Below are positions 184 through 64,000 of a DNA stretch of 64,000 bases, piece after piece (position 1 is the first letter of the stretch; each line of letters begins with the position of its first letter). The position numbers and the translations under genes were made by a program. This DNA comes from Lytechinus pictus (Eukaryota): the NCBI RefSeq assembly GCF_037042905.1, contig NC_087250.1, positions 27,034,001 through 27,098,000 of the forward strand. Direction: 5' to 3'. Under the pieces are notes generated by a model. The model did no database searches. It saw only the letters and a program-made list of their open reading frames with translations, and was not told the DNA's origin.

Positions 184-526
184 CAGTTCCAAAGAGGCGA
201 CATGAAAGAGAAATGTTAAAGAATTTATGGATGTTTAATGTCCAGTGTTCAAGTAAATATGCACAGATTATTTTCGAGATTCGAGTTGTCATTATTTGTT
301 AATTTTTCACAATATTAATAAAAAAAAATTCTCGAAATTAATTGAGATTGTAAATTCAAATGAATATACAGTTGATATTGATGTAATATAATTGGATGAT
401 TAGATGTAATTAAACTGTTGAAGAAGACGAAAATGTTTTATCATATATCTTATAATAGGTAATCATTCATTCGGATCTGTATATAGAACTGTATAAATGT
501 GACGTATTTTTTGTATTTTAGACACC

Positions 527-1043
527 ATGGATCTTACTGGAGTGCGCAGGAAACCGAACGGTGATGACCCTTCAACGAACACCGCCCTCTCTCGACATGA
601 ATTCTACGACATTTATCTCTGGGCATCGTCTAAAGATACAGACTATTTTCGTAAAATGAAAGATTGTATTCATTCCAATAGATGGAAAATGACATCTTGT
701 TTTGATCATAAGTTGGGTGAACTAGTGACGCAAAGCATCGAAAATGCTCTCTTGAAATGCTCCCACATGGTATGTTTGATCACGAAAGATGACTGTAAAA
801 CAGACAACCTTCAACAGCTTATGACAATAGAGATGGCGATTCAGTCGCTTCCAAGAACGACAGGAAAAGGATTAGAAGGCCGGGTTATTCCTATCCGTTG
901 TGACGTTCCAGAATCTTCTCTTACTCCTAAACTGAAGGCTTTGACAGGAGCGAGTATTGATGATCGCGACCTTGAAGAAAGACTAAGGAAAAGTATTAAT
1001 ACGAACATCCGGATGGAGAGAGAAGAAAAGGAGAATGTCACAG
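527..1043 (+). CDS. TIR-domain coding exon (exon 1 of a predicted TIR/coiled-coil/beta-propeller protein)
   Basis: TIR-like motifs in order: YDIYLWASSKD (bA), FDHKLGELVTQSIENALLKCSHMVCLIT (BB loop/aB/bC), EMAIQ (aC), RVIPIRCDVP..LTPKL (bD). Acceptor ttttag at 520-521 lies 5 nt before caccATGG; donor CAG|GTGATT at 1043/1044 (phase 1) lies just before the ORF stop. Confidence 0.75.
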
Positions 1044-2479
1044 GTGATTGACAGATTTATTGTCCCTACCAAAGGTATATTATTTGGCACATTGTGGTTA
1101 TATATGGGTAGTTTTACTCTAAATAGTCTACATCTATGCACTACACTCAACCATCCGTAGCAAAATACACAGCGATGTAAAAGAATTCGACCCCGCCCTC
1201 CTCAAATCATCACCAACATGATGATAATAAATAAATAGGATTTAGGATATAGGAATGATATAGTGCATACTAGAAAAAGGGAAAATGTTATAGCTCAGTG
1301 ATTTGTTCTCCTATATCATGATCATAAATTTACTTCATAAAGTGTACATGAATGGAAAAAATATACTTTTTTTTTTTTCATTTGAGACCCGTCTAAACGT
1401 TCCTAATGCACGCATGACTGAGTTAGAACAATGAAACGTCGTGCTACCAAATTTCCATTCGCACGTAAAGTTATGTTTTTTGAGTGAGTTTTGCTGGTTT
1501 TTACTGCTATCTATTCGGAAAACAAATTTTATACCTTGAGTATGAATTTTTTCCCCCTCTTTCATACAAGACCTTATGCGTTAAAAATATGAATGACGCA
1601 AGCCATAGTCAAGAAAAAATGTTGCATTGAAACATGCTTGATTTCTTACTATTCAATGGATCGTTGAAAAAACAAGCACTTTCTTTTCCCCCAACAAAAA
1701 AGGAAACAATCTTAAAAATAGGTCGGTGAAGGAAACCCCTTTATTCAGTGGCCGCGGAAGCGGGGGAGGGGAGCCCATATCACATGGGCGGCAGAATATG
1801 TTTGAACGGGGAGGGGCGCAGCAGAAAAGGGTACGCGTACATCACCTTTTTTACAATTGAAGGGGAGAAATCATTTTCGTGTTTTCCTTTAAATGAGTAA
1901 CCCCGCCCTATCCAATATTCCACCGCCCCTACCTGGTCTTGTCATATGAAGCATATTTTTACAAGTTTTACAAATAGAATTCAAACATTACTTTCAAGCC
2001 AGCAATAATATTCACTGGTAGCCCGTTTTCTGTCGCTTGTTGGAAATACTCGTTTTCCTATGATCAATAGGGAGAAATCAAGCATCGCATGTCTTCAGGA
2101 CACACACCACTAACTATTTCCCCATAGACTCATGTGTTAAAAATGAGATTTGAAAAAATCGCCAAAAAATAAGTCTTAATAAGGACATCATTTAGATTGT
2201 TCTTCCAATATCCTTCAAACGCCAAAGATAGGAAAATGTGTTTTTCAGCATGTTTTCGCGCTACAGGGGCTCAAACCAAGACTACATGCAAACTTGGTTG
2301 CAGTCACAGTGCTCACAGGGTTTCTTGGGCAACTAATTAAGGTCCCATAAAATCCAGCATTGACAAATCACTGCTCTCCCATTGGACTGAACAGATCCCG
2401 TAGTAATCCCTCTCTATATGCCCATGTGAAAAAAAAAATGTTCAGATAGGCATTGTTTATTTCATTTGAATATTTTTTC

Positions 2480-3035
2480 CCCGGGGGGGCCACTTCCATT
2501 CACGAGTGGATACCATGCGCGACCATGGGGTCTCGAAAAGCACCCTAAACACGTAATTTCCATATTCTGAAAATGCACCCCTTAACAAGTATTGGCGTGT
2601 GAAACCCTACCCTTAACAAGTATTGGAAACAAAACGATAGTCTTGGCAAATATTCCCTGAAATGAACCCCTAAACAAGTACAGGAATGTTTTATTGTTAC
2701 GGGTCCTTCGGTCGTCGGCTTTACCTTATTTGGTTTAGTACGACCCCACCTTCTACACCTCGCGCAAATCGGACTCTAAACACGAAGTGTTGGGGCAAAA
2801 TGGACATCCTTTATAAAACATTTTAATTTTGTTTTATCATTCCCGCAAATCGACCCTAAACACGTAATTTTCCTAGCGAAATAGACACCCTTTTAAAATT
2901 ATTTTTTGTGTTTTTGACACCCTTATCACGTTACGTACGTAACGTGCCCTATCGTGAAAAGGACATCCTTTTTACGTGTTTTTTTGGTCGCGCATGGTAT
3001 CCACTCGTCAATGTAAGTGCCCCCCCCCCCCCGGG
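2480..3035 (+). mobile_element. Non-autonomous DNA transposon (MITE) with 8-bp TSD
   Basis: Terminal inverted repeats CCCGGGGGGGCCACTTCCATT.ACGAGTGGATACCATGCGCGACC; ATTTTTTC duplicated at 2472-2479 and 3036-3043. Confidence 0.85.
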
Positions 3036-3468
3036 ATTTTTTCCCAACCATTACGGGTCTAAAGGGAATTCCCTAAATTGCCTGATCCCATTAGTGGTGT
3101 GTGTCCTTCATGGAACTTTTTTTTCGACAATGCGTCAATCATATTTCATGCACAAGGTCTCATAATTATGAAAGATGAAAATGAATATACAAGTTTTGAA
3201 CTTATTTTCCAAAATACATAGCAGTAAAAGCCAGAAAGAGTCTCTCAAATTCGTAAGTTGCTCATGCAAAATGAAATTTGCTAGCACCACTTTGTTCTAA
3301 CTCAGTCATGCGAGCACTATGAACGTTGAGATGAGCTTCAAATGAAAGATGCGGAGCGTATCTTTTCATGGTTTCCTTTTTTTCTAGGACGCACTGTATA
3401 TTGCACATAATTATCATCTTTGTTAGGCATGTTAGGTGTTCAAGGAACTTCTGTAGTCGGCTAATTAA

Positions 3469-4065
3469 AGGACAAGTCCACCCCAACAAAAAGTTGATTT
3501 AAATAAAAAGAGAAAATTCAAACAAGCAAAATATCGAAAATTTCATCAAAATCGAATGTAAAATAAGAAAGTAATATGACATTTTAAAGTTTCCCTTAAT
3601 TTCACCAAACAGTTATATACACATCCTCGTTGGTATGCAAATGAGGAGACTAATGATGTCATCCACTCAATATTTCTTTTGTATTTTATTGTATGAAATA
3701 TTTTAATTTTCTCCTCCTTGTCCGGTGGAACAGCAATTAATTCCTCCATGAAAATTTGGAATTAGTATTGTTTAATACTATATGGTTCAGTCAAGTTGGT
3801 CCTTATCGTCAAATCTGTAAAAAATGAAATATTGTATAATTTAAACAATAGAATATAAAATAAATAGTGACTGAGGGACACCATCGACCATCTCATTAGC
3901 ATGTCACTGATTTGTGCATATCACTGTTTTGTGAAAGTAAGCAAAAATTTAAAATGTAATAACTTTCTTATTCTACATTTGAATTTGATGATGTTTTCAG
4001 CATTATGCAGGTTTGATTGTTTCTTATTTATTTAAATCAGCTTCTTTCTGGGGTGGACTTGACCT
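3469..4065. mobile_element. Kolobok-like MITE
   Basis: TTAA on both sides (3465-3468, 4066-4069); termini AGGACAAGTCCACCCCA ... TGGGGTGGACTTGACCT. Confidence 0.8.
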
Positions 4066-4393
4066 TTAATGATGTCGATAAACATTACTGAACGTAGTGG
4101 GTGCAAACACCTCAATACAAATAACTAACAAAATGTTTTTTTAGCGTTACGCTTGTCTTAATTTTCTCTATTTATTCAAACTCACATTATTCTGGAGTGG
4201 ACTTGACCTTTAAGCTAGACTACCGATTTAGGTGCTCGCAGCTTTTTGAAAAATTACCTTCTGCTGGTACCCAATTACCTAACCTGGGTTGGGTGCAGCG
4301 CAGTATGGGTAAAATCATCATTATTATTAACAAACATAGGCTTTTACCAAACATCCATAATTGATGTATTTTAAACTATTATTTACGATATAG

Positions 4394-5972
4394 GTTGCTA
4401 TGTGTCTCAACCTGAAAGAGATGTAACAAGAGAGCGACGCTATGTCAAAATGTCTTCTGGTCGCCCGAGCACCACCAAAGACGACGAACAGAAACAACGT
4501 GAGCTAGATGGGACGAGGAAGAAGCTGAATGAGAAACGGGCCATGTTAGAGGAAACAAAGCAAAGACACAAGGTAGTTGAATCGAAAATTAGAGCCGTTT
4601 CAAATTCATCAAGTAAGCATTTTCAAACGATCCATGATGATATCCAGGAGACATTGGACAAAACATTACTAAAGTTAAAAGTTAAAGAAAGAGAAAATAT
4701 AGAATGCATTAATGAGATAAACAAGGACGCAGATAAGCAAATAACAGACATAAATAAAAAGCGACAAAAAAGGATAGAAGCTAAAAAGGTCGAGCTAGAA
4801 CGGGAACGAAAAATAATCAAAGACAATGAAGCCAAACTATCATCATGTATATCAGACAAAGATGAAATCAGCAAAAAAGTTTCCGAGAAGATAAGCGATG
4901 TTAATAATAAGATTCAGGATGCAATAAAGAATATTGAATTCACCATCACACGTATAAACCAACATGATAAAACATTGGTGAATGAAGCTCCTCAAGTACT
5001 TGCATCTATTGATGAAAATTTAAGTTTGAATGTTCATCAAGATGTTAGCGACTGCCTTGACCGAATAAAGAGTGAAGTTGAGAGAGTGAAGTTTGTAGAG
5101 AGGGAAGTAGGTGGAGAATACTATGGTAGAATTGATGGGTATATCGGTAAATGGGAACTTGTCAAATCAATCCACATTCCATCGGTTGTTAATTACCCGT
5201 ATGTGCGTGGTTTAGTCAGTGATGATGAGATATGTGTGCGAGACGAAGATAACAATGACATGTATGTTACAAACATCAACACTCAACACACAGAGAAAGT
5301 CATTGATGGAGATGTGTGTTTATTACATCATGTGCGCCCATAGACAGTAACGTAATAGTATGTGGTAAGGAGAGAGATGATTGCACGGGTGACAGGTTGG
5401 ATGGATGCATCACTCTCTATGACAGGCAATGGAAGGTGATTAGAGACATCAGCATACCAATGAATGGAGGCAGTTATTGTGTGTATGTTGATGTTGACAG
5501 GGATGGGATGATCATCGCTGGTCAGTTCAATCAGTCTAATATCTACGTCATCAATCCTGCTGATGATAAGATAGTAAACACTATTACGATACAGGGTAAG
5601 GAGGTGAGGGGTGATATACAAGCCTTGTCATCAGGTGATATCGTTGTGAAGACAGGTGGTAATGAATTCACTGTCATCTCACGATCAGGAGAAGAGAAGG
5701 CTGTCATACACTGTGATGAGTGGTACGACCCACAGTGTCGCGTTGACAAACTGACAGACACACTCTACATCGCGTACTGGGATAGAGCACGTAAGACCTA
5801 CGCAGTTGATCAGGTGTCACGTGATGGTATCATCCAGGCAAGGAGGATCGTGGAATACGAGGAATCAGGTCGCGCTAACTTCATAAGCCCTTGTCTTGTT
5901 TCTCCTTCTGGTAACTTCGTAGGGTGTGATGGAGACAAACTTCTTCTCTACAAGAAGACATTAATCTTGTAA
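4394..5972 (+). CDS. Coiled-coil + NHL-like beta-propeller exon, copy 1 (no B-box; 2-bp frameshift at ~5313-5320, possibly a pseudogene or assembly error)
   Basis: ORFs 4402-5343 and 5316-5972 together align colinearly with ORF 41896-43557. One extra TG in GATGTGTGTTTATT relative to paralog GGTGTGCGTGTT shifts the frame. Confidence 0.85.
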
Positions 5973-8447
5973 ATCATCTAGACTATCAAAGGAATCATAT
6001 CGGATTTGTAAGAGAAATATAGACCAGAGATTTGTTTTCACTTTTACTTCCATTTCAATTTACGTCCTTCTATCTCTATATGTACTACATTCATATACAC
6101 ATGGCCATGGTGTGTATAATGTTGTATCAATCCATATCAAATAGAAAACTGTCGCTAATGTCCACTCCGTCTACATTAAGGTCTGTAATGAATGCACTCA
6201 GATCCAAATGAATAGTTTACTCGAAACCTGAACAAAATAAATGCAAAATGTGTTCACGAATTGCCTACTTGAACCAGATTGTTATTGTAGAAAGTCTTTT
6301 AGATTGGCTGAATTCAGTTTTGAACGTGTTAATAACTAATTTCTGTGAAGTGAACCCGATCATTTATTTTACCAAACGACATTTCGTTCAATTTCATTCG
6401 ATGTTATTCTCCTAATAGTGATCGGGTTATTCCTCGATTAAAATTGCTCATAGCTTTTAAGGTATTTGATTCGAATCAATTAATCAGGACCCTATTTCAT
6501 AAAAGTGTTGGCTATGAGAACAACTCTTGCTAAAATGTCAATTACCATGACAACAATAACGATTCTGCTTCCTGATTGGCTCATCCAATGAAATTTGATA
6601 TTCAAACTGGAGTTGTTATCATAGCCAGGTTTTATGAAATGGTACCCTGGTTGATTTCATTTTTTTTTATTCTGTGGTAAAAAAAAAAAAAAGCGGGAAG
6701 GGGTCAAAATGGTATGAAATTAATTGAAGTTTCGTAATGTACACAATCCCCCCCTCATGACGTTAGATTAAAATAAGATAAAATCTCGTAAATAATGGTG
6801 TTTAATAGGGTTCTTGTTTAGTCTACATTCATATGACAATATAAAGGGAAAGGGATAATGTTTCCCGTATAATTCTTTTTTTCGCCAATTAAATATTCTC
6901 TAGTCATGTATAACAAAATAGGTGAGATTTTTCTCAAAAATATTTAGCACACGGTATATTCATCATATTCCTGAAAGTATTGCATCATATTACTTATTTC
7001 AATCAGTTCATTTCTCTTCGCTTGTACAACTTTTACTTTATCCTCATATCGCTTAATATTTTCAACATAGATTACTGATTAATTGTTTCCCTACACGAAT
7101 AATATCATCTTACACATTGGCTACCTGACTAGGAAATCTTAAGTAACAATGATATGGAAGTGAAATATTTTTTTAAATAGTTATTTGTGTCGACGTTCTG
7201 TAATGATGTGTTCGCACTTACTACGTTCAGTTATGTTTATCAACATCATGAAATTATGTCAAATTAATTTCATTATAAAGATCATATGTCAAAAAAAAAA
7301 AACACATGATAGGCTAGCGTACCATGCTGTAAATAAATAAAACAGGAATCTATTTTTGTTTAACAGACAGAATAAGATAATTTGTCAAATATCTGCCCAT
7401 AATGTAGCTTTTGTTCGTGGTTTCATGTTAATATAATATTTAACTCGATTCAATCCATTTGTTTATTTCGTTTCTATTTTAAATTGTGTTTAGTGTGTAA
7501 ACTGGAAGTCTATTCCAGAGGCATTAGCTAAAGTGAATATTCTTAAGATGAAAATGGTTGTATTCTTCTGATCATAATTGATTCAAATTGTGTGGTTATT
7601 CTTATACATCTACCCCCCCCCCCATCTCTCTTTTAACCCCTAAATTACCCCCTTGTACTGTGTAATACGACACGAATATCCATGTTGCTGCAATAAGTTG
7701 TATATAAATCGTTATTGTCTAGGGTGTGTTGTTTTAAGGTAGGAGTATATCATTTTTCAAAAGAAAAAAATCCAACCGAATTTATTCTTACAATAATCAA
7801 CTTTGTACAGGTTAAGTTTAGCTAGGGTTTATGCTTTATTTCAACTATCAATTCAATTGCCCGTTATTGTCTATATAGTATAGGTTATTGAAAGTTCGTT
7901 CCTAAAAATGGAACGGGATATAGTGCTATATGTCTACATTTTCTTCCGGTGATATGTCAGATCTAACGATTTTTCTTGTTTTTGATTGGCTGAGAAGCGC
8001 TGTTACTATGGGTAATGTCAAATGAAACGCTTGACAATCCAAACTTTTTATTTATTTGCTCAACATTTGTTGTTTGATCTTATACAGCTAATTACAATTT
8101 TCTTCATACAACTAGGAAAACTAATGTACATAATGAACATTTATATTATGATATAACATGTATAATGTGATGATGTTAGTATCTATTATTTCAAGTGTAT
8201 ATTGCAAGATGAGTAGAAACTATACTTTTTGTTTTTAAAATAATATATTTTCATTATAATTTGTTGTGAATTACTAACACTATTGAATAGAAAAAAAAAC
8301 CGTTTGTTGATGTATATTACTTAAATCGAGACGAAATTATTCTTACCTACTTGAGAGCTGAAAATAGTCAAGTGAAAATAGTTCGGAAATATCTTTCTGT
8401 ATTAATGTATTTAGTAAATTTCGAGAAATGTTTGCCAATGCAATATA

Positions 8448-9267: not shown

Positions 9268-10261
9268 TATAGTGATATACAAATTGCTGATCTAATTATC
9301 AACCGATCGGAAGAATATCTAAGATTTTAAATTGATCAAAAATACATGGTGTATTTTGAAGTTATTATCATAGTTATGAAGAGGGTGTTCTTAATACACA
9401 AATAATCACGTACTATATAATCAAGAAATTTTGTCAGCATAAATGAAAATAAATGTCAAACAAAATACCGACTTTGCTCAATATATGATGTTTAATATAT
9501 ACAGCTGATTATAATTCGCTTCATAAAACTTGGAAAACTATTGTACATAACATGCATAATGAACATTATTATGATATAATGTATATCATGATATCTATTA
9601 TTTTCAAGTGTATATTGAAGGATGAGTAGAAAGTATACGTTTGCTTTTGATATAATATATTTTCATTATACTTTGTTGTGAATTACTAACATTGTTGAAT
9701 AGGAAAAAAAGCCAATGCTTGTTGTATAGACTTAAATCAAGACGAAATTAATCTTAAATACTTGAGAGCTGAAAATAGTCATGTGAAAATAGTTAGGAAA
9801 TATCTTTCTTTACTGTGGGTTAATGTATTTAGTACATTTCGAGAAAGGTTTGCCAATGCAATATATACATGACATAGTTGTATACAAATTACTGATCAAA
9901 ACACCAATTATCAACCGATCTAACTATATCTTCACTATGGGTTATCTACTACATTTCGAGAAAAGCTTACCAATCCCCAATCAGTTGTATGCACATTATT
10001 TATCTAAAAACCAAGTATCAACCGATCTGAATAAATGCTTAATATTTTTAAACTGATCGAAATCTTTGCAGTTTTTTTTAGGTCATTATCATGGTGATGG
10101 GGAGGGTGATTTTAATGCACAAACAATCATGTAAAGTTATAATCAAATAATTTTGTCAGCATAAACGAAATTAAATGTAAAAAAACCGACTCTATATGCA
10201 GTTCATATTTGTGATTTACAAATGATTTTATTGGGCATGTAGGACTGATGGTAACAGACGA

Positions 10262-10670
10262 AGGGGGGGGGGGGGGGGATGAGAAGATAAAGGGAAAAGA
10301 GAGGGGTGGGAAAGTGGAGGGGAGTGAGAGATTAAAAAAATGGAGAGACGAGGGAAGTAAAGATGGAAAAAATATAGAGAAAAATATATATATGAAAATA
10401 AAAGGATAAAGAGACGGAAAGGAAAGGGAAAGAAAAGATGAGAGGGAGGGGAAGGGGGGGGGGGGAGAGAAAGATAGAAGAAGGGGAGAGAAAAGAATGG
10501 AGAGACAGTGAGAATAAAGACTGAGAAAGAGCGAGAGAGAGAGAAGTGGAGGAGTGAGAAGGAGAAATGGAGAGACAAGGTGAATACAGATGGAATGAGA
10601 AAGAGAGAAGGAGAAGAAGAACTACCGAGAGGCAAGGAATGATAGAGAGAGATGGGGGGAAGGGGACGGG
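10262..10670. repeat. Purine-rich (GA) low-complexity tract
   Basis: Almost exclusively G/A; duplicated at ~47468-47885. Confidence 0.9.
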
Positions 10671-11023
10671 GTGAATTTGTATTTGAGTTTGTATTTGTAT
10701 TTTCCTTTCTTATATAGGAAACAAAGAAACATTACATTACACAGTGAAATACATCACAAACCATGTCAATCATAAAAATTCATAACAAAATTGAAGAAAG
10801 GATGAATTTGAATTCCGTATAGATAGATCTGGCTTCGTTGAAATTAAGTAAAAGGAAACATAACTGAGGGGCTTGCCAAGAACGAATGAATTTAAGAGAT
10901 TTAAAAAAATCATAGAAAAGAGTTAGAGAGAGAGAAAGAGGGGGGGGGGGGGGACAATCAGAACGCTACTTTTTTGCTTCACTGGGAAATTTTGTACGAT
11001 TAAATAATATTAAATTATATTAA

Positions 11024-20238: not shown

Positions 20239-23200
20239 TTTTTTTTTTAATTATGTTTTTATTGTTTTCATCAATAATCAATTACAGAAAATCACAATAT
20301 TTACATAATTAGACATGATCGTAAACAAACAAACAAAAATAAAACAACAACATTGATAAAGAAAAAAGAAAAAAAGTGACAAGTAACATAATCCAGAACA
20401 AACTAAAACAATTAGAGTTATACATATACGTACAACCATTATATCAGGTAATGAGCCGTGGCAAAATATTAACCTGTACTTGCGGGGTATAAAAAAAAAG
20501 GCAACGTGTTTTACAAGTGAACTTCTTCAAAGCTCAAATCTCCATTTTTTTTAATGTAAAGCAAGCTTGTTTCTTTTTTTGGCCATATAGTATTCAGTTT
20601 CCCTTTGAGATTTGATAAAATTCTTAAAGAATTCAACATTTGGAGTATCACCTCTAAATTTACAAATATATATGTAATATTTCACAATCAATAAAATGTA
20701 AGTTACAAACTTATCAGTTATTATACCAAACAGTTTTTCAAAATTCGTAAGATTAATAACATTGCCTTTACGTTCTAACGAATTTGTAACATATTTCCAA
20801 AGTGGAGTCACTTTTTCACATTCGCAAAATAAGTGTACAATCGTTTCTTCTTCTTTTTCACAAAATACACAGTTGGGAGATTCCTTTCTATTGATTTTGA
20901 ATAAAAAATCATTCAATGCTATACTTTTATGAAATATTTTAAAATAAAAAGAGCGCAATCTAGTGTCAATAGTACAAGTGAAATTGACATTATGAACCTT
21001 CTCCCAAATGGTTTCTTCAGGAACAGTAATTTGCCTTTTCCAATAATCATACCTCTTCTCAGGGATCTGAGGTACATTCATTATCTTATAAGCATACTTC
21101 GGTACTTTTTTAATAGCAAGTAACGAGGAAACTAGGGAATCATGAAGGTTTACACTATATAAAAAAGGAACGTCTAACCAGTCCTCTGGAATGTGTTTGA
21201 TCAAAAAATTATATTTTCTTCGATCTGATCTCGGAATGTCAAAGTCTAAAATCAATTCTTCAAACAATTTATGGTTTGGTAAGGGTGGGTTCAATATATC
21301 TGAAATGCTTGAGATGTTCTTGTTATCCCATGATTCATAATAAAAATACCTTTTGGATTTAGAGCGAATGAGTCTATTAAACCACAAAATCTGACAAGTA
21401 CCAATTTCAGAGAATTTAGCGTGATATGATTCTAGAGTAGCATATTCACTATAGACATACCAAGTTCGCAATGAATCGGCTATTTGAGAGTTTTCCAGAG
21501 ATTTTAAAATTGATTCTGGGGCAAATGCTTTCCATAAAATTTTGTTATCCTTATGAAATTTTTCCAAAGCCAGCACTTCAATGGACTTCCATGCTGAAAC
21601 ATATTTATCATTAAGTAAAAGTTTCACCCAAGACATTTTCTGAGCAAAAGAAAAAAACCCAAGGATCAATCATTTTTAGGCCACATTGAATATAATCACT
21701 ATACATATATTTTCTTTTGACTCTATCTTTTCCACCATTCCAAATAAACTTGAAAAAAAGACTATTTAATTCATTAAAATATTTTTGGGGTGTTTTTATA
21801 CTTAACACAGAGAACAGATACATTAGTTGAAGCAAGACTAAAGACTTGATCACACAAATTTTACCAATAAGAGATAGATTTCTCATCCGCCAACAATTTA
21901 TGGTCTGTGTCATTTGCTTAAGTTTTTCTTTATAATTAAGATCAAATATCAAACTCAAATCCAATGAAAAATTTATCCCTAAAGACTGAAATGTAGAGTT
22001 TCTCCAAGTAATTCCTTGATTACTCATGTGGAAGTCTTGGCACCCTTTCTTTGACCCAATCCAAATTGCTTCAGTCTTAGATAAATTCAACTTGCATCCA
22101 GAATATTTCCAAAATTGGTACAAAACATCAAACAATGAATCAAATGACTTTCTGGACCCATCTATAAAACAAACAGAATCATCTGCAAACAAAGAAATTT
22201 TAACTTCATGATCTTGTATCTTCATCCCATTCAAATTATCGTTTTGTCTTATTGATAATGCCAAAATCTCCATGACAAACAAAAATAAATATGGAGAAAT
22301 AGGGCTGCCTTGAAAAATACCTCGTTGCATAGAAATGCGATTAGTCAAAAAGCCATTATTTAGTACATAAGAAGTACGTTCCTTATAAAGAGTCTTTATC
22401 CAATATAAGAAGTTGTCCCCAAAGTTGAACTGTTTTAAAGTCTGAAAAAGGAAATTATGATTTACACTGTCAAAAGCCTTTTCAATATCAAGTAATAGTA
22501 TAGCTCCTGGTATATTATTTGCTTCAGTGTACTCTATGATATCAAATATTAAACGTACATTATGAATATGTTTCTACCTCTTAAAAAAGCAAATTGATCA
22601 GTATGAATAAGACAATTAATAAAGCGTTTAATACGTTCTGCCAGACATTTTGCCAATATTTTATAATCAACCGTCAGAAGCGTAATAGGCCGGTAGTTTT
22701 TAATCAAAAGGTCATCCCTGTTTTTTTTCGGAAGGAGGGTTATAATACCATTTCTTTGTGATAATGACATCATCCCACTTCGTAGAGAAAAATTAAAAGA
22801 ATCTAATAACATATCACATATATCCGGCCAAAACACTATGTAAAATTCAATAGGAAGACCATCAAAGCCAGGGGCTTTGTTGGTTTTTATAGATTTAATG
22901 ACATCAACTATCTCTTGTTTTGAAAGTGTTTTTTCTAATAATTCTTTTTCACTATCTGTTAATTTAGGAATATTTATCTTATTAAATAGATCTTGGAAAT
23001 TATCATCTGAGCTATTCTGATGTTGGGAATTACTATACAAGTTTTCATAAAAGTCATGAATTTCTTTTAATATCTTATCTGGGTCAGAAGACAACTTTCC
23101 CTCTCCATCCTTGATTGTACTGATATTTTCTTTTTCTGCCAAGATCTATTTTCTAAATTACAAAAATATTTTTAATTCTTTTCTCCTTCTTCTTACCATC

Positions 23201-24123
23201 TGACCCTGGATCTGATTATCAAACCTTTTGTCTCGAAATCATATAATTTATTCAATTTATCTTCCAGATCAGCTATATTTGCTAAAAGTCTATTATTCTT
23301 GGAGACATTTTCACTTAGTTGAGACTTCATTATCTCAATTTCTTTATTGAGATGATCCTTTTCTTTTTTCCTTTTTTTCTTTTTCCTGGCAAAGTATTCC
23401 ATACTGCAACCAGTAATTACACATTTAAGGGCATCCCACTGAGTGTTTGGATTACATTCAGGATCCTTATGTATTTTTTTAAATTCAGAGATCTTCTCCT
23501 TAATTAAATTTATATATTCTGCATCATGATGTAAATAATAACAATTAAGCTTCCAATATCCTTTACCTCTTTTGGGACTATTATCGTTGAAATGTATAGA
23601 TACTATGGAATGGTCAGATTGGATTCCCGGGGATATTTTCGACTTAACGCAGTTACCTATAAAATCACTAGAAACCAAAATGTAATCCAATCTGGAGAGA
23701 ACTTGGGGTGACTTTTGATGTCGTGTATATTGTCGCTGTGTTGGGTGAAAATGTCTCCAAACATCAATTAAGTTGTATTCTTCCATGAGATCTGAAATCA
23801 TATTGCTAGCCCTAACATTAGAGTGATGGTGTCTTGTACCCTGGTAATCTATATCACTAAGGGTGGCATTGAAGTCTCCGCCCAAGATTAAGGAAGAACT
23901 TTCAAACTTGTCCATTTCTGCAAATGTCTCTAGAAAAAAATTAGGGTCATCGTTGTTGGGAGCATAAATGTTAACAATAGTCAAATGTATGTCATTCAAA
24001 AAACAATTCAGAATTAAAAATCTACCTTGAGGGTCATATAAGGATGACTTCATTCTCACTGAGATAGAATTTCGTATTAGTATTGCAACACCCCGACTAT
24101 TGGAAGAGAAGTTAGTAAGTTAG
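20239..24123 (-). mobile_element. 5'-truncated, disrupted L1/Tx1-clade LINE (ORF2: APE endonuclease, RT, C-terminal Cys domain)
   Basis: ORF pieces 23193-24059 (VNIYAPN, GGDFN, SRLDY, SDH), 22549-23142 (KAPGFDG, YRPITLL), 21611-22348 (QGSPISP, FADD) and 20551-21669 (CVFC..ETIVHLFCEC). AATAAA and A-tail near 20239-20264; possible TSD TTC(C/A)TGTAAGAT. Confidence 0.92.
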
Positions 24124-41800: not shown

Positions 41801-43440
41801 TTTTGATCAAATGTTTCTTGAGTTCATTTTAACTTTTCTTGCGTTTTTTTTTTTTTTTTTTTTAGGTAGGCTACTGTCCCTATTTTATCTTCGTCATGGC
41901 GTCTAAGTTCCCAAAAAAGAAGGGTGGAGAGGACGAGCTTCGTACAAGGAAAGGTCATGACATGAAATGGTCATGTGACAAGCATGGTGAGCCAATCAAA
42001 TTTTACTGTAAGAAACACAAAATTCCTATTTGTCATCCATGCGCTACCAAAGATCACAGTCAAAAACCATGTCAGCTAGACGACATCGAGGATGTCATCT
42101 TCGAAAGGAGGAGACAGCTTGATGAAAAACGGCCAAAAATACAGGAACTTCAGAAACAATTGGACGCCCTCAATGGGAAAATAAAGACTGTGTCAACGTC
42201 TGGAAGTACTCATCTTCGGAAAATTAACAACAACATTCAAGATTCATATCACGACAAGATCGAATCTGTTGGAGAAAAGGAGAACAGGATGATTAGGGTT
42301 ATTAACGAGGAGGCAGATGAGGAAATAAGACTCGTAAATGAGAAGAGAGAAAAACGGATCAAGGATTGCAACACCGAGAGAGAAAATGAGCGACAAATCA
42401 TCAAAGACAAAAAAGCAAAACTTTTATCAGATGCAAAGAAAATCAGCGAAGTTGTTTCTAAGAAGATCAAAGATCTTGCTAATAAGAATCAGCATGTAAT
42501 AAACACTGTAAAGAACATTGAATCAACCATCAAACGTATAAACCAACATGATGAAACATTGGTGAATGAAGCTCCTCAAGTACTTGCATCTATTAATGAA
42601 AATTTAAGTTTGAATGTTCATCAAGATGATAGCGACTGTCTTGACCGAATACAGAGTGAAGTTGATAGAGTGAAGTTTGTAGAGGGGGAAGTAGGTGGAG
42701 AATACTATGGTAGAATTGATGGATATATTGGTAAATGGGAACTTGTCAAATCAATCCACATTCCATCGGTTGTTAATAAGCCGTGGGTGCGTGGTTTAGT
42801 CAGTGATGATGAGATATGTGTGCAAGACGTAGATAACAATGACATGTATATTACAAATATCAACACTCAACACACAGAGAAAGTCATTGATGGAGGTGTG
42901 CGTGTTACATCATGTGCGCCCATAGACAGTAACGTAATTGTATGTGGTAAGAGGAGAGAAGATTGCACGGGTGACAGGTTGGATGGATGCATCACTCTCT
43001 ATGACAGACAATGGAAGGTGATTAGAGACATCAGCATACCAGGGAATGGAGACGATTATAATAGTGTGGATGTTGATGTTGACAGGGATGGGATGATCAT
43101 CGCTGGTGAGTACTATCAGTCTAATATCTACGTCATCAATCCTGCTGATGATAAGATAGTAAACACTATTACGATGCAGGGTAAGGAGGTGTGGAATGAG
43201 ATACAAGACTTGTCATCAGGTGATATCGTTGTGAAGACAGGTGATGATGAATTCACTGTCATCTCACGATCAGGAGAAGAGAAGACTGTCATACACTGTG
43301 ATGAGTGGGACGTAACACAGTGTCGCGTTGACAAACTGACAGACACACTCTACATCGCGTACTGGGATGAAGCGCGTAATACCATCGCAGTTGATCAGGT
43401 GTCACGTGATGGTATCATCCAGACAAGGAGGATCGTGGAA
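38846..43440 (+). repeat. Segmental duplication matching ~54010-56606 plus 61764-64000
   Basis: Near-identical by eye; the ATGs of copies 2 and 3 are 20561 bp apart. Confidence 0.9.
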
Positions 43441-43557
43441 TACGAGCAATCAGATCGCACTAAATTCATGAGCCCTTATCTCGTTACTCCTACTGGTAAC
43501 TTTATAGGGTGTGATGGAGACAAACTTCTTATCTACAAGAAGACATTCATCTTGTAA
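41896..43557 (+). CDS. RING-less TRIM-like protein: B-box zinc finger, coiled coil, NHL-like beta-propeller (copy 2, intact, 553 aa)
   Basis: B-box pattern CDKH-x7-C..H...ICHPCATKDH; charged heptad region; beta-rich repeats from WELVKSI (42736). Single coding exon preceded by poly-T + AG (41864-41865). Confidence 0.9.
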   Translation: MASKFPKKKGGEDELRTRKGHDMKWSCDKHGEPIKFYCKKHKIPICHPCATKDHSQKPCQLDDIEDVIFERRRQLDEKRPKIQELQKQLDALNGKIKTVSTSGSTHLRKINNNIQDSYHDKIESVGEKENRMIRVINEEADEEIRLVNEKREKRIKDCNTERENERQIIKDKKAKLLSDAKKISEVVSKKIKDLANKNQHVINTVKNIESTIKRINQHDETLVNEAPQVLASINENLSLNVHQDDSDCLDRIQSEVDRVKFVEGEVGGEYYGRIDGYIGKWELVKSIHIPSVVNKPWVRGLVSDDEICVQDVDNNDMYITNINTQHTEKVIDGGVRVTSCAPIDSNVIVCGKRREDCTGDRLDGCITLYDRQWKVIRDISIPGNGDDYNSVDVDVDRDGMIIAGEYYQSNIYVINPADDKIVNTITMQGKEVWNEIQDLSSGDIVVKTGDDEFTVISRSGEEKTVIHCDEWDVTQCRVDKLTDTLYIAYWDEARNTIAVDQVSRDGIIQTRRIVEYEQSDRTKFMSPYLVTPTGNFIGCDGDKLLIYKKTFIL

Positions 43558-46450: not shown

Positions 46451-48209
46451 TATAGTGATATACAAATTACTGATCTAATTATCAACTGATCGGAAGAAAT
46501 ATGTAAGATTTTAAATTGATCAAAAATACATGGTGTATTTTGAAGTTATTATCATAGTTATGAAGAGGGTGTTTTTAATACACAAATAATCATGTACTAT
46601 CATAATCAAGAAATTTTGTCAGCATAAATGAAAATAAATGTCAAACAAAATACCGGTTTTACATGCTCAATATATGATGTTTAATATATACAGCTGATTA
46701 TAATTCGCTTCATAAAATTTGGGAGACTATTGTACATAACATGCATAATAAACATTATTATGATATAATGTATATCATGATATCTATTATTTTCAAGTGT
46801 ATATTGAAGGATGAGTAGGAAGTATACGTTTGCTTTTGATATAATATATTTTCATTATACTTTGTTGTGAATTACTAACATTGTTGAATAGGAAAAAAGG
46901 CCAATGCTTGTTGTTGTTGTTGTATAGACTTAAACCAAGACGAAATTAATCTTAAATACTTGAGAGCTGAAAATAGTCATGTGAAAATAGTTAGGAAATA
47001 TCTTTCTTTACAGTGGGTTAATGTATTTAGTACATTTCGAGAAAGGTTTGCCAATGCAATATATACATGATATAGTTGTATACAAATTACTGATCAAAAC
47101 ACCAATTATCAACCGATCTAACTATCTCTTTACTATGCATTGGTTATCTACTACATTTCGAGAAAAGCTTACCAATCCACAATGAGTTGTATGCACATTA
47201 TTCATCTAAAAACCAACTATCAACCGATCTGAATAAATGCTTAATATTTTTAAACTGATCGAAATCTTTGCAGTTTTTTTTTTTGAGGTCATTATCATGG
47301 TGATGGGGAGGGTGATTTTAATGCACAAACAATCATGTAATGTTATAATCAAATAATTTTGTCAGCATAAACGAAATTAAATGTAAAAAAACCCGACTCT
47401 ATATGCAGTTCATATTTGTGATTTACAAATGATTGTATTGGACATGTAGGACTTATGATAACAGACGAAGGGGGGGGGGGGGAGAATGAGAAGATAAAGG
47501 GAAAAGAGAGGGGGTGGCAAAGTGGAGGGGAGTGAAAGATTTAAAAAATGGAGAGACGAGGAAAGTAAAGATGGAAAAAAAGATAGAGAAAAAAATATAT
47601 ATATGAAAATAAAAGGATAAAGAGACGCGGAAAGGAAAGGGATAGAAAAGATGAGAGAGAGAGAGAGAGAGGGGGGGGGGAAGATAGAAGAAGGGGAGAG
47701 AAAAGAATGGAGAGACAGTGAGAATAAAGACTGAGAAAGAGCGAGAGAGAGAAAAGTGGAGGAGTGAGAAGGAGAAATGGAAGGACAAGGTGAATACAGA
47801 TGGAATAAGAGGGGGAGAGAGAAGAAGAAGAAGAACTACCGAGAGACAAGGAATGATAGAGAGAGATGGGGGAAAGAGGACGGGGTGAATTTGAGTTTGT
47901 ATTTGTATTTTCCTTTCTTAGGAAACAAATAAACATTACATTACAAAGTGAAATACATCACAAACCATGTCAATCATAAAAAATCATAACAAAATTGAAG
48001 AAAGGATGAATTTGAACTCCGTATAGATAGATCTGGCTTCGTCGAAATTAAGTAAAATGAAACATAACTGAGGGGCTTGCCAAGAACGAATGAATTTAAG
48101 AGATTAAAAAAAATCATAGAAAAGAGGGGGGGGGGGAGAACAATCCGAACGCTACTTTTTTGTATCACTGGGAAATTTTGTACGATTAAATAATATCAAA
48201 TTATATCAA

Positions 48210-62456: not shown

Positions 62457-64000
62457 ATGGCGTCTAAGTTCCCAACAAAGAAGGGTGGAGAGGTCGAGCT
62501 TCGTACAAGGAAAGGTCATGACATGACCTGGTCATGTGACAAGCATGGTGAGCCAATCAAATTTTACTGTAAGAAACACAAAATTCCTATTTGTCATCCA
62601 TGCGCTACCAAAGATCACAGTCAGAAACCATGTGAGCTAGACGACATCGAGGATGTCATCTTCGAAAGGAGAAGACAGCTAGATGAAAAACGGCCAAAAG
62701 TTCAAGGACTTCACAAACAATTGGAAGCCCTCAGCACGAAAATAAAGACTGTGTCAACGTCTGGAAGTACTCATCTTCGGACAATTGACAACAACATTCA
62801 AGATTCATATCACGACAAGATCGATTCTGTTGGAGAAAAGGAGAACAGGATGATTAGGGTTATTAACGAGGAGGCAGATGAGGAAATAAGACTAGTAAAT
62901 GAGAAGAGAGAAAAACGGATCAAGGATTGCAACACCGAGAGAGAAAATGAGCGACAAATCATCAAACACAAAGAAGCAAAACTTCTAGCAGATGCAAAGA
63001 AAATCAGCGAAGTTGTTGCTAAGAAGATCAAGGATCTGACTGATAAGAATCAGCATGTAATAAACACTGTAGAGAACATTGAATCAACCATCACACGTAT
63101 TAACCAACATGATGAAACATTGGTGAATGAAGCTCCTCAAGTACTTGCATCTATTGATGAAAATTTAAGTTTGAATGTTCATCAAGATGTTAGCGACTGT
63201 CTTGACCGAATACAGAATGAAGTTGAGAGAATGAAGTTTGTAGAGAGGGAAGTAGGTGGAGAATACTATGGTAGAATTGGTGGGTATATCGGTAAATGGG
63301 AACTTGTCAAGTCAATTCACATTCCATCGGTTGTTAATAACCCGTGTGCGCGTGGTTTAGTCAGTGATGATGAGATATGTGTGCAAGTACGTAACAGTGA
63401 CATGTATATTACAAACATCAACACTCAACACACAGAGAAAGTCATTGATGAAGGTGTGCGTGTTACATCATGTGCGCCCATAGACAGTAACGTAATAGTA
63501 TGTGGTAAGGGGACAGGTGATCGCACGGGTGACAGGTTGAATGGATGCATCACTCTCTATGACAGACAATGGAAGGTGATTAGAGACATCAGCATACCAA
63601 GGAATGGATACGCCGTATATTATAGTGTGTATGTTGATGTTGACAGGGATGGGATGATCATCGCTGGTCAGTTCAATCAGTCTAATATCTACGTCATCAA
63701 TCCTGCTGATGATAAGATAGTAAACACTATTACGATGCAGGGTAAGAAGGTGTGGGATGGGATACAAGCCTTGTCATCAGGTGATATCGTTGTGAAGACA
63801 GATTATAATAAATACACTGTCATCTCACGATCAGGAGAACGGAAGGCTGTCATACACTGTGATGAGTGGGTCTGGTCAGAGTGTCTCGTTGACAAACTGA
63901 CAGACACACTCTACATCGCGTACTGGGATAGAGCGCGTAATACATACGCAGTTGATCAGGTGTCACGTGATGGTATCATCCAGGCAAGAAGGATCGTGGA
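62457..64000 (+). CDS. RING-less TRIM-like B-box/coiled-coil/beta-propeller protein, copy 3 (runs off window end; missing from the ORF track)
   Basis: Manual translation MASKFPTKKGGEVELRTRKGHDMTWSCDKHGEPIKFYC ... DGIIQARRIV with no stop; colinear with 41896; acceptor at 62425-62426. Confidence 0.9.
   Translation, partial: MASKFPTKKGGEVELRTRKGHDMTWSCDKHGEPIKFYCKKHKIPICHPCATKDHSQKPCELDDIEDVIFERRRQLDEKRPKVQGLHKQLEALSTKIKTVSTSGSTHLRTIDNNIQDSYHDKIDSVGEKENRMIRVINEEADEEIRLVNEKREKRIKDCNTERENERQIIKHKEAKLLADAKKISEVVAKKIKDLTDKNQHVINTVENIESTITRINQHDETLVNEAPQVLASIDENLSLNVHQDVSDCLDRIQNEVERMKFVEREVGGEYYGRIGGYIGKWELVKSIHIPSVVNNPCARGLVSDDEICVQVRNSDMYITNINTQHTEKVIDEGVRVTSCAPIDSNVIVCGKGTGDRTGDRLNGCITLYDRQWKVIRDISIPRNGYAVYYSVYVDVDRDGMIIAGQFNQSNIYVINPADDKIVNTITMQGKKVWDGIQALSSGDIVVKTDYNKYTVISRSGERKAVIHCDEWVWSECLVDKLTDTLYIAYWDRARNTYAVDQVSRDGIIQARRIV

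Follow-up and report, generated by a model that had tools for sequence, protein, structure and literature searches.

Do a TIR-encoding exon and a downstream exon for a coiled coil and beta-propeller belong to one gene in Lytechinus pictus, and has the TIR domain there taken the place of a B-box? The question is raised by one locus in a 64,000-nt stretch of genomic DNA (NC_087250.1, positions 27,034,001 to 27,098,000), referred to here as the window; all positions given are window positions, and all features described lie on the + strand. The evidence points to a probable answer: the locus represents a real gene for a TIR domain, a coiled coil (CC) and a six-bladed NHL propeller, derived from a B-box family and proposed to sense ligands, of which the window copy is damaged.

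The TIR exon (522..1043) contains 522 nt and has phase 1 at both ends. It starts at 522, after the acceptor TTTTAG/ACACCATGG (exon opening AC ACC ATG; slashes mark splice cuts), rather than at the ATG at 527. The donor, read from the sequence as GTC ACA G/GTGATT (CAG/GTGATT), has 1043 as its last exon base, and the 517 nt from the ATG to this base end the exon in phase 1. At the acceptor of exon 2, GATATAG/GT TGC TAT, the first exon base is 4394; G and GT across 1043^4394 form Gly, and the residues after it, CYVSQPERD, are read in the same frame as the open reading frame 4375-5343. The intron between the two exons (1044..4393; 3350 nt, GT..AG, phase 1) contains high-copy repeats, and about 550 bp of it (2482-3035) are missing from the paralogous intron.

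A spliced joint mapped at 1041->4392, which skips 3350 nt with GT..AG ends and equals 1043^4394 when the cut is moved by +2, was found in one contig of run X19 and one of run X1, the recorded kinds of these runs being '?' and 'RNA?' rather than RNA. The X19 contig has 0 differences from the window copy over 773-1041, and the X1 contig carries the letters of a paralogous locus (L012) at six diagnostic sites (854, 918, 940, 959, 961 and 4432); thus, both paralogs are spliced alike. The mapping reference for contigs and reads began at 400, and upstream-exon use falls outside its range. Two runs that are recorded as RNA (X21 and X22), sampled at about 6% each, yielded no junction reads and hardly any depth over the exons, and carry no weight either way. 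The same junction is used in NCBI models P0002, P0003 and P0005, with two L. pictus paralogs modelled in this way, and the acceptor context GATRTAG/GTTRCT is kept in all six loci inspected. The junction exceeds chance. The preliminary description of this DNA, which had joined the phase-1 donor at 1043 to the acceptor before 4394, is borne out by the reading frame, by the GT..AG joint in contigs of both runs and by the NCBI models.

The joint to 4394 speaks against splicing of the TIR exon to another site. Termination at 1051 by reading on past the donor, the arrangement of the older model P0001, was rejected, the unique intron bin at 1164-1354 having a contig depth of 0; depth is in the thousands in the repeat bins of the intron and 0 in the unique ones. 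The B-box portion of P0001 maps to an upstream neighbour gene (L010, 89.5%). A processed DNA copy is an unlikely origin of the spliced contigs: when the same genome was searched, with 57 scored out of 1179 candidates, the matches to TIR and to exon 2 lay at separate places every time.

The 5' part of exon 2 (4394..5082) encodes 17 residues without a counterpart, a B-box relic and then a presumed coiled coil, the last judged by its composition and by the 49% identity that it shares with the equivalent region of a B-box paralog. Two such paralogs lie in the window: an intact B-box-CC-NHL gene with one coding exon for 553 aa (41896..43557), and a second one (62457..63998) that runs past the window end (C6:27096589-27098115 in the genome search). 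By BLASTP, exon 2 residues 18-229 align with paralog residues 42-257 at 49% identity (E 1e-55); by blastn, the window copy upstream of 4717 has no DNA similarity to the B-box paralogs, the homology being visible at the protein level. The relic (4447..4506) corresponds to the C-terminal half of a B-box, its KMSSGRPSTTKDDEQKQRELD aligning to paralog KIPICHPCATKDHSQKPCQLD, with the paralog Cys/His replaced. The B-box paralogs score 26 bits with Pfam zf-B_box (cut-off 24.1), and no such match was obtained for the window copy; the loss of the Cys/His pattern reported earlier is confirmed at the aligned positions. No RING was detected with Pfam in the B-box paralogs, and the TIR gene has neither a RING nor an intact B-box. 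The large exon descends from a RING-less B-box-CC-NHL (TRIM-NHL-like) family, retaining a dead half B-box.

The remainder of exon 2 (5083..5972, stop codon 5970-5972) encodes the propeller, interrupted by a frameshift. The intact paralog propeller (42667-43554) was modelled with a pLDDT of 91.3 and 25 strands, and in a VIA search its ranks 1-13 were all NHL domains (Z 22.3-24.4), including Mei-P26 (24.4), Brat (24.0), Thin (23.9) and TRIM2/3 (23.1). Pfam NHL gave no match to the propeller, and the two exon-2 reading frames of the window copy matched only DUF5074, under the cut-off (E 0.0012). The six-bladed propeller proposed at the outset is supported by the paralog model and its NHL matches.

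Is the window copy functional? A +2 nt (GT) insertion at 5314..5315, unique to this copy and set in a GTGTGT run, shifts the frame to a TAG at 5341-5343. The 697-aa product predicted earlier is obtained only after removal of the 2 nt; as assembled, the protein has 488 aa (172+1+315), and a different frame (5307-5972) is open through the remaining propeller. The two extra bases are absent from seven of nine aligned loci and present in the window copy and in L015, where they belong to an insertion of 6 nt that keeps the frame. About 7 kb upstream, the Death-like exon of the window locus contains several stops and indels, and the locus is therefore decaying in at least one part. The window copy is transcribed and correctly spliced, yet damaged; its assembled product is a TIR-coiled-coil protein without the propeller, and it is most likely a young pseudogene or truncated variant. 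The insertion itself could be an assembly error or a single allele, because 221 codons are open past the break, up to the usual stop of the family, and no contig confirms it. The copy may be an intact 697-aa gene, though this is less likely than not; the insertion in the GTGTGT run would then have arisen in assembly or would mark a single haplotype, the species being highly polymorphic, and the transcription and splicing of the copy are in keeping with this. The window letters at 5320/5321 occur in no X19 or X1 contig, despite a window-type depth of about 29 of 109.6 at 5246-5266 in X19, and an in-frame paralog-like contig spans the site. This missing contig counts for little, because contigs break where paralogs share words. 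Against intactness, the assembly carries the insertion and the Death-like exon is broken, in line with decay of this copy of the gene.

The 174-aa ORF of the TIR exon matches Pfam TIR_2 with an E of 3.3e-4 and 21.6 bits, under the 28-bit gathering cut-off, and TIR_2 matches were found in 11 of the 19 relatives scanned (two over the cut-off, nine under). With phmmer, the single ORF gave chance-level matches alone in the PDB (best E 0.016, poxvirus 16L protein), and a profile search was required: the family profile (A1) has TIR-STING 6wt6 as its top PDB match (E 9.5e-6). The AF2 model (pLDDT 76.7) has a structured core at about residues 25-165 and the strands (E) and helices (H) E27-32, H39-50, E55-57, H67-77, E78-86, H92-107, E120-125, H134-137 and H149-172, which alternate as in a flavodoxin-like alpha/beta fold. 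All 36 Foldseek matches listed are TIR entries, as are all 50 listed by VIA, the best being the TRAM TIR (Z 14.9, rmsd 2.4, 133 aligned residues). The exon at 522-1043 thus encodes a divergent adaptor-type TIR, the fold first suggested for it being recovered by modelling and structure comparison, though its Pfam score is sub-threshold. Its family counts 22 proteins among 1.84 billion representatives, all from echinoids apart from one hemichordate match.

Rather than provide adaptor scaffolding, the TIR might cleave NAD+ enzymatically, like the TIRs of SARM1, of plant TNLs and of bacterial defence proteins; ligand-induced clustering would then bring about NAD+ depletion or a nucleotide signal. 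Fusion of a TIR straight to a sensor is also seen in oyster TIR-STING, the best PDB sequence match, and in a bacterial WD40 and TIR_2 cluster; the TIRs of SARM1, AbTir and RUN1 align at Z ~11; and most family members retain E102, a Glu within MTIEMA, which lies on the helix bearing the catalytic Glu of enzymes. However, the WxxxE Glu of TIR-STING and BtTir aligns to family L98/M99 in two HMM profile alignments, a placement made by profile rather than by residue-level structural superposition, and E102 lies 3-4 residues beyond. In addition, structure comparison ranks adaptors first (TRAM, Z 14.9 and 13.6), and Death domains accompany the family as they do in MyD88. An adaptor-type TIR is preferred, an enzymatic output being rated the less likely of the two.

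How was the TIR joined to this module? Sister loci have the order Death-TIR-CC-NHL or Death-CC-NHL with the same acceptor as TIR-CC-NHL, and the Death-CC-NHL loci L014 and L016 lack the TIR exon. In P0002, a Death-like domain precedes the TIR; its exon ends in phase 1 (A/GTAAGA) and matches Pfam Death with an E of 5.3e-4 and 20.5 bits (cut-off 22.6) over profile positions 4-82 of 86, while phmmer of this exon against the PDB returned nothing relevant. The N-terminal output modules of the subfamily are same-phase exon cassettes spliced onto one acceptor, and the ancestral form probably also had an upstream Death-like exon. The effector swap by exon shuffling that had been envisaged from the sequence is supported by the symmetric phase 1-1 TIR cassette, present in Death-TIR-CC-NHL and absent from Death-CC-NHL loci with the same acceptor. 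It needs one refinement, in that the swap did not take place at the edge of the B-box: exon 2 retains a degenerate second B-box half, and the divergence of its 5' coiled-coil part from the B-box type is ancient. As an alternative, the junction could be a chimera induced by transcription, linking a Death-TIR adaptor gene to a truncated NHL gene downstream of it without any fused protein under selection, but this is very improbable. It would agree with a fused form found in one species only among the annotated proteins searched and with the older model P0001, in which the TIR exon is attached to the B-box gene upstream and closes with GD-stop. Against it, the TIR exon is free of in-frame stops ahead of its donor and agrees in phase with exon 2, which has lost the B-box and the family start; the arrangement is kept at three loci diverged up to dS ~0.23-0.26 with a TIR dN/dS of ~0.3; and past 1163 contig depth drops to 0 in the unique bin of the intron.

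Apart from 2482-3035, the window locus and L012 run colinear at about 95%, and the window copy is a ~95% identical segmental duplicate of LOC135154451. Relative to the B-box paralogs, exon 2 is a mosaic of an old 5' part and a nearly homogenised 3' part. It is specific to the TIR/Death type up to about 4900; sliding identity of the 5' part is 47-72% with the B-box type and 96-99% with L012 up to about 4918, and the propeller DNA of the window copy is 90-96% identical to all paralog types. The dS between the 5' part and the B-box paralog is 1.36, whereas that of the 3' half (coiled-coil end, propeller and 3' flank) is ~0.03-0.09 across all types. The TIR is under purifying selection, at a dN/dS of ~0.3 (0.29-0.53 against two paralogs). 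For the propeller, dN/dS was 1.37-4.16 in 10 of 10 pairs, and the whole-domain pN/pS was 1.21-2.62 in six of six pairs (binomial p<0.05 in three). The hypervariable patches were defined by amino-acid variability, which makes patch-level pN/pS partly circular and leaves the whole-domain values free of circularity. The 41 hypervariable sites lie in or adjoin all 11 odd-to-even strand loops but none of the 11 even-to-odd ones, and are therefore on one propeller face.

Several known systems resemble parts of this gene. TRIM-NHL proteins (Brat, Mei-P26, Thin, TRIM2/3/71, LIN-41 and NHL-2) likewise have a coiled coil, presumed here, followed by a six-bladed NHL propeller, their entries aligning with the paralog propeller over 245-268 residues at VIA Z 22-24.4 and an rmsd of ~3 A, and they share the B-box with the window's paralogs. 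They differ in that a TIR stands in place of the B-box here, the paralogs have no RING, Pfam NHL is not significant, and the sea urchin family is a large tandem expansion with one hypervariable propeller face. RNA binding is a known role of several NHL domains, judging from the titles of the matched entries. Among adaptors, the nearest folds are those of TRAM (Z 14.9), TRIF and MyD88 (Z 12.5), and P0002 has the MyD88 order of Death-like domain and TIR. Unlike in these adaptors, the echinoid TIR falls under the TIR_2 cut-off and is fused to a CC-NHL module, and the Death-like exon scores short of the threshold (20.5 vs 22.6 bits), with its counterpart at the window locus decayed. Oyster TIR-STING (6wt6/6wt7), the best PDB match by profile and Foldseek, combines a TIR and a ligand-sensing domain in one chain, and a bacterial cluster with WD40 in 100% and TIR_2 in 99% of its members has a TIR and sensor layout. 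Plant TNLs also join a TIR to a ligand-sensing domain in one chain, and their link to the present gene is the TIR fold match (RUN1). Sensor type and lineage differ in all these fusions, and a nucleotide signal from the urchin gene would be hypothetical.

The finTRIM and TRIM5-like genes are B-box/coiled-coil multigene families whose diversity is reported to stem from duplication together with positive selection on the C-terminal recognition domain (PMC2657112). The urchin family appears to have diversified similarly, with an NHL propeller as the sensor rather than B30.2/SPRY, no RING, and an exchangeable N-terminal module (B-box, Death or TIR). Domain-shuffled TIR genes of amphioxus are reported to provide new TIR combinations in an expanded immune repertoire (PMC2575513), as the urchin gene may do among invertebrate deuterostomes. 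The same source gives only about six TIR combinations for sea urchin, close to human, and the terms NHL, propeller, B-box and coiled have 0 occurrences in it; TIR-CC-NHL is therefore additional. Among the annotated proteins searched, the fusion was found only in L. pictus (5/5 and 3/3 matches), and an ESM Atlas feature search gave no usable match for P0003. A full-text literature search found no paper on the combination of TIR and coiled-coil/NHL, and the NCBI names for the fused proteins are just 'uncharacterized'.

Sea urchins possess very large innate immune gene families. To these, the present case adds a TIR, with or without a Death domain, on a TRIM-like coiled-coil/NHL module, with a clean exon-cassette mechanism, spliced-contig evidence of transcription and positive selection confined to one propeller face. 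The B-box-CC-NHL type is a family in sea urchins, with tandem expansion to 132 proteins and 1179 first-look genomic candidates. For the TIR-CC-NHL candidate, we infer a role as an immune sensor. The hypervariable propeller face would bind a variable ligand, probably pathogen-derived, and the coiled coil would gather chains; the clustered TIR, together with Death where present, would then nucleate TIR-TIR/Death-fold signalling assemblies, as in MyD88, TRAM and TRIF, its output substituting for the role of the B-box in the paralogs. More broadly, and rather tentatively, the echinoid B-box/Death/TIR-CC-NHL genes may be an unrecognised family of cytosolic immune receptors, in which the hypervariable NHL face would serve for recognition, positive selection would keep it diverse over a conversion-homogenised backbone, and interchangeable phase-1 cassettes (B-box, Death or TIR) would set the output. 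If so, animals would have a parallel to the choice between TIR and CC in plant NLRs, and the window would hold a young TIR-output member in mid-decay. Should the family sense pathogens, it would provide a tractable system for the rewiring of a recognition domain to different signalling outputs, and would allow one to ask how gene conversion and diversifying selection share one exon.

The TIR gene of the window (copy 1) is laid out in two open frames on the forward strand, the first at 503-1051 with an ATG at 527, and the second at 4375-5343 and, once the frame changes, 5307-5972. In the window sequence, the donor of the TIR exon has 1043 as its last exon base (...GTC ACA G/GTGATT, the slash marking the splice boundary), and exon 2 begins at 4394 after the acceptor ...TTTACGATATAG/GT TGC TAT. 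The 517 nt from the ATG to the donor end the exon in phase 1, and G plus GT across the junction gives glycine, after which the frame reads CYVSQPERD. A pyrimidine-rich acceptor between 521 and 522 on the same strand (TTTGTATTTTAG/AC ACC ATG) places the start of the TIR exon at 522, upstream of the ATG, and the exon (522-1043, 522 nt) is therefore in phase 1 at both ends.

For splice evidence, four public sequencing runs were aligned to window positions 400-6100. One contig from run X19 and one from run X1 contained a joint from 1041 to 4392, which skips 3350 nt bounded by GT..AG and, with the cut moved by +2, is equal to 1043^4394. The X19 contig (349 nt, depth 29.8) showed no other letters over 773-1041 and reaches 80 nt beyond the junction. 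The X1 contig (depth 10.7) departs from the window at 854, 918, 940, 959, 961 and 4432, each time with the letter of L012, the locus of the paralog LOC135154451; thus, the window copy and its paralog are spliced at the same site, in one run each. X19 and X1 carry the record kinds '?' and 'RNA?', neither being recorded as RNA, and both behave like RNA assemblies. The X19 depth was about 33-34 in the TIR-exon bins (591-972) and about 27-37 in the first exon-2 bins (4411-4792); the contig depth was 0 in the unique intron bins 1164-1354 and 3074-3264 and in the thousands over the intron repeats. Runs X21 and X22, recorded as RNA (about 6% of each), yielded no read over the junction and hardly any exon coverage, and are neutral on the splice. 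In the genome of the animal itself, TIR and exon 2 were always matched as separate places (57 of 1179 candidates scored), which argues against a processed DNA copy as the source of the contigs. The NCBI models P0002 (795 aa), P0003 (699 aa) and the older P0005 (596 aa), which reads ...EKENVTGCYVSQPERD... across the junction, all contain 1043^4394 and are independent support for it. The in-frame splice through glycine into CYVSQPERD proposed in the preliminary description is thereby borne out by the sequence, by the GT..AG joint in the X19 and X1 contigs and by the NCBI models. Read-through of the TIR exon to a GD-stop, as in the older NCBI model P0001, was rejected, the unique intron bin 1164-1354 having no contig depth. 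P0001 (693 aa) is a chimera of a B-box-CC-NHL gene (CC, presumed coiled coil), a B-box fragment and the TIR exon, ending in the GD-stop; its B-box portion matches, at 89.5%, a gene upstream of the window.

The 174-aa ORF was matched by Pfam TIR_2 at E 3.3e-4 with 21.6 bits, so the expected HMMER match was obtained but stayed below the 28-bit cut-off. HMMER, run exhaustively over 1.84 billion representatives, returned just 22 relatives; the 10 looked up come from S. purpuratus, L. variegatus, L. pictus and one hemichordate, three being without a name. Among 19 relatives scanned, 11 matched TIR_2, two over the cut-off (P0021 and P0025) and nine under it, and seven matched Death. A profile built from 21 family members retrieved 30 PDB sequences at E <=1, nearly all TIR proteins, with oyster TIR-STING at the top (E 9.5e-6). 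The AF2 model of the ORF (pLDDT 76.7, pTM 0.74) shows a TIR-like alternation of strands and helices, with residues 1-22 disordered. TIR entries made up all 36 of the rows listed by Foldseek (best E 2.6e-6) and all 50 of those from VIA, a second structure comparison, confirming the fold that had been anticipated for this ORF. Taken together, the Pfam, profile, Foldseek and VIA matches identify it as a real but divergent TIR. In two residue-level profile alignments, the WxxxE glutamate of TIR-STING and BtTir falls on L98/M99, and a family-conserved glutamate, E102 (in MTIEMA), lies 3-4 residues downstream on the same helix. A less probable alternative to adaptor-type signalling is that this TIR would hydrolyse NAD+, like SARM1 and the TIR-sensor fusions of bacteria and plants. 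The best VIA match was TRAM (Z 14.9, rmsd 2.4, 133/140 aligned), followed by TIR-STING, Hydra TRR-2, MyD88 and TRIF at Z of about 12.5, and the modelled TIR is nearest in shape to signalling adaptors.

The TIR exon has eight matches in the genome. A CC-NHL exon lies 3-4 kb downstream in the window, at L012 and at L013 (the P0003 gene); at the other five, the flanks were covered for about 1.5 kb only. P0002, the product of L012, has an extra first exon (L011 6303-6579) that is Death-like and ends in phase 1 at A/GTAAGA; against Pfam Death, it gave E 5.3e-4 and 20.5 bits (cut-off 22.6) over profile positions 4-82 of 86. At two further loci, a Death-like exon and a CC-NHL exon occur with no TIR between them: L014 1188-3617 (C6:27143188-27145617, C6 being the contig of the window) and, on the minus strand, L016 1341-3799 (C6:26151341-26153799). 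The two loci add a third type of N-terminus to the family, with the same phase-1 acceptor, and a protein search with the type-specific region found no annotated protein of this architecture. The acceptor context ..GATRTAG/GTTRCT is common to all six of six loci. With a phase-1 donor before it and a phase-1 acceptor after it, the TIR exon is a symmetric phase 1-1 cassette, and the reading frame is preserved with or without it. Symmetric-phase exons are a classic signature of exon shuffling. The phase 1-1 cassette and the Death-CC-NHL loci lacking TIR support the exon shuffling suggested earlier for this gene, and the ancestral arrangement probably included the Death-like partner exon.

From the TIR exon through intron and exon 2 into the flank, the window locus and L012 are colinear and about 95% identical, apart from a repeat of about 550 bp (2482-3035) in the window intron that is absent from the L012 intron; the window locus is a recent segmental duplicate of LOC135154451. 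A decayed homologue of the Death-like exon precedes the TIR exon by about 7 kb (L009 ~2985-3392, C6:27026985-27027392); it keeps the ATG and the GT donor context, but its tenth codon is a stop, and it contains other stops as well as indels of 1 nt and 5 nt. L003, another TIR locus, has a comparable remnant upstream, and its NCBI model also begins at an ATG within the TIR exon. Alignment of copy 1 with eight other loci revealed a +2 insertion (GT) in a GTGTGT run at 5314-5315 on the forward strand, missing in seven of the eight; L015 has a 6-nt in-frame insertion there. As assembled, the insertion leads to a TAG at 5341-5343. The 697-aa product predicted earlier would require the frameshift to be corrected; the assembled copy encodes a 488-aa TIR-coiled-coil product, with the remainder of the propeller still open in the other frame. 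The window letters at 5320/5321 were found in no X19 or X1 contig, so the frameshift is known from the assembly alone; the X19 window-type depth at 5246-5266 was about 29 of 109.6, and a paralog-like in-frame contig spans the insertion site. The window copy is probably decaying. High-copy repeats occupy 2310-3073 and 3456-4219 in the intron as well as 1-190, where contig depth climbs as high as about 58,000 and the RNA reads show many loose ends. The sequence at 2485-2623 repeats, in inverted orientation, the one at ~39-177, which lies upstream of the TIR exon. Long ORFs at 20551-24119 (minus strand) and 56958-58891 (plus strand), read by eye, have the look of a non-LTR retrotransposon, with endonuclease-like and reverse-transcriptase-like translations and a FADD motif, and a second element has a zinc-knuckle-like ORF.

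The propeller was modelled from the intact paralog domain at 42667-43554 with 36 aligned family members (pLDDT 91.3, pTM 0.89, 25 strands). Foldseek returned seven-bladed G-beta matches mixed with NHL domains, with higher TM-scores for NHL (Brat, 0.69/0.73). The VIA ranks 1-13 were all NHL domains, including Mei-P26 (Z 24.4), Brat (24.0), Thin (23.9), TRIM2/3 (23.1), LIN-41 (22.5) and NHL-2 (22.3). The B-box paralogs of the window (41896-43557 and 62457 onward) score 26 bits against Pfam B-box (cut-off 24.1), and a Pfam scan found no RING; they are RING-less TRIM-NHL-like proteins. The propeller family was found to be large in echinoids, with 132 proteins at E <=1e-3, mostly of about 550 aa and, where named, from L. 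pictus, L. variegatus and S. purpuratus, and with 1179 first-look candidates in the L. pictus genome. A Pfam ZU5 match (cut-off 21) follows the propeller in P0046 (L. variegatus, 955 aa, 24.1 bits) and P0063 (L. pictus, 1081 aa, 21.0 bits), which might represent an additional architecture or gene models that were merged.

By blastn, copy 1 resembles the B-box paralogs in DNA only from 4717 onward, up to about 350 nt beyond the stop codon. At the protein level, exon 2 residues 18-229 align with paralog residues 42-257 (49% identity, E 1e-55), placing KMSSGRPSTTKDDEQKQRELD of exon 2 opposite KIPICHPCATKDHSQKPCQLD of the B-box paralog; the first 17 residues of exon 2 are without counterpart there. 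KMSSGRPSTTKDDEQKQRELD is what is left of the second B-box half, its Cys and His having been replaced. The earlier view that TIR stands in place of the B-box is refined by this relic of a half B-box, which persists in exon 2. Up to about 4900, copy 1 shows a sliding identity of 96-99% to L012 and 47-72% to copies of the B-box type; from about 4920, its identity to all copies, B-box and TIR-type alike, is 86-97%. Against the B-box paralog, dS falls from 1.36 in the 5' part to 0.087 over the following 130 codons. Exon 2 has a mosaic history, with an old 5' part and a homogenised 3' part. The simplest reading would be that the N-terminal halves split long ago and that the 3' half has been homogenised in the tandem cluster by continuing gene conversion or unequal exchange. 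Low-complexity Ser/Leu/Pro-rich open frames, alike, lie on the minus strand at 10127-10731 and 47453-47917, each some 4 kb downstream of a gene, copy 1 for the former and the first B-box paralog for the latter, which suggests that the tandem duplication unit reaches well beyond the genes.

Compared with L003, the TIR exon has a dN/dS of 0.29 for the window copy and 0.32 for L002, a further TIR locus; between the latter two, it is 0.53, on nine differences only. The type-specific coiled-coil part gave 0.66-0.82, and the propeller after the frame break gave 1.37-4.16 in all 10 pairs among five loci. Over the whole propeller, pN/pS was 1.21-2.62 (six pairs, seven intact loci), with binomial p<0.05 in three of the six; patches around variable sites reached 1.66-5.98, a partly circular figure as the patches were picked by amino-acid variability. 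The propeller dS was only 0.02-0.07 between paralogs differing in N-terminal type (window 5083-5972 and 42667-43557, and family-wide). Among 50 close family sequences, 41 propeller sites have an entropy of >=1.5 bits. When the strands of the model are numbered from E24-31, all 41 sites fall in, or <=4 residues from, loops after odd-numbered strands, occupying 11 of 11 such loops, and none falls in the 11 loops after even-numbered strands. Since the loops of a beta-meander alternate between faces, the variability lies on one face of the propeller.

Each component, whether TIR, Death-like, TRIM-type coiled coil or NHL, is of known kind; their combination is new. The gene models are already in NCBI as uncharacterised proteins, and a full-text literature search found no description of a TIR-NHL or TIR-TRIM-like protein. 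[quoted passage not shown] Among annotated proteins, the type-specific region occurs in only three and a TIR in a protein of >306 aa in five, all from L. pictus, and B-box-type relatives were found with ease in L. variegatus and S. purpuratus; on this basis, the fusion looks young, or unannotated in other species. The nearest evolutionary analogy is the finTRIM expansion of fish, whose C-terminal domain is described, in the part of the source available, as being under positive selection (PMC2657112). The TIR-rod-propeller pattern would be that of a receptor, in which a conserved TIR, sometimes accompanied by a Death-like module, is tied by a dimerising rod to a domain hypervariable on one face. 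The propeller would bind a variable ligand, and clustering of the receptors may allow MyD88/TRAM/TRIF-like signalling assemblies to nucleate on the TIR/Death modules; in the paralogs, a B-box would be the partner of this sensor module. The case bears on comparative immunology.
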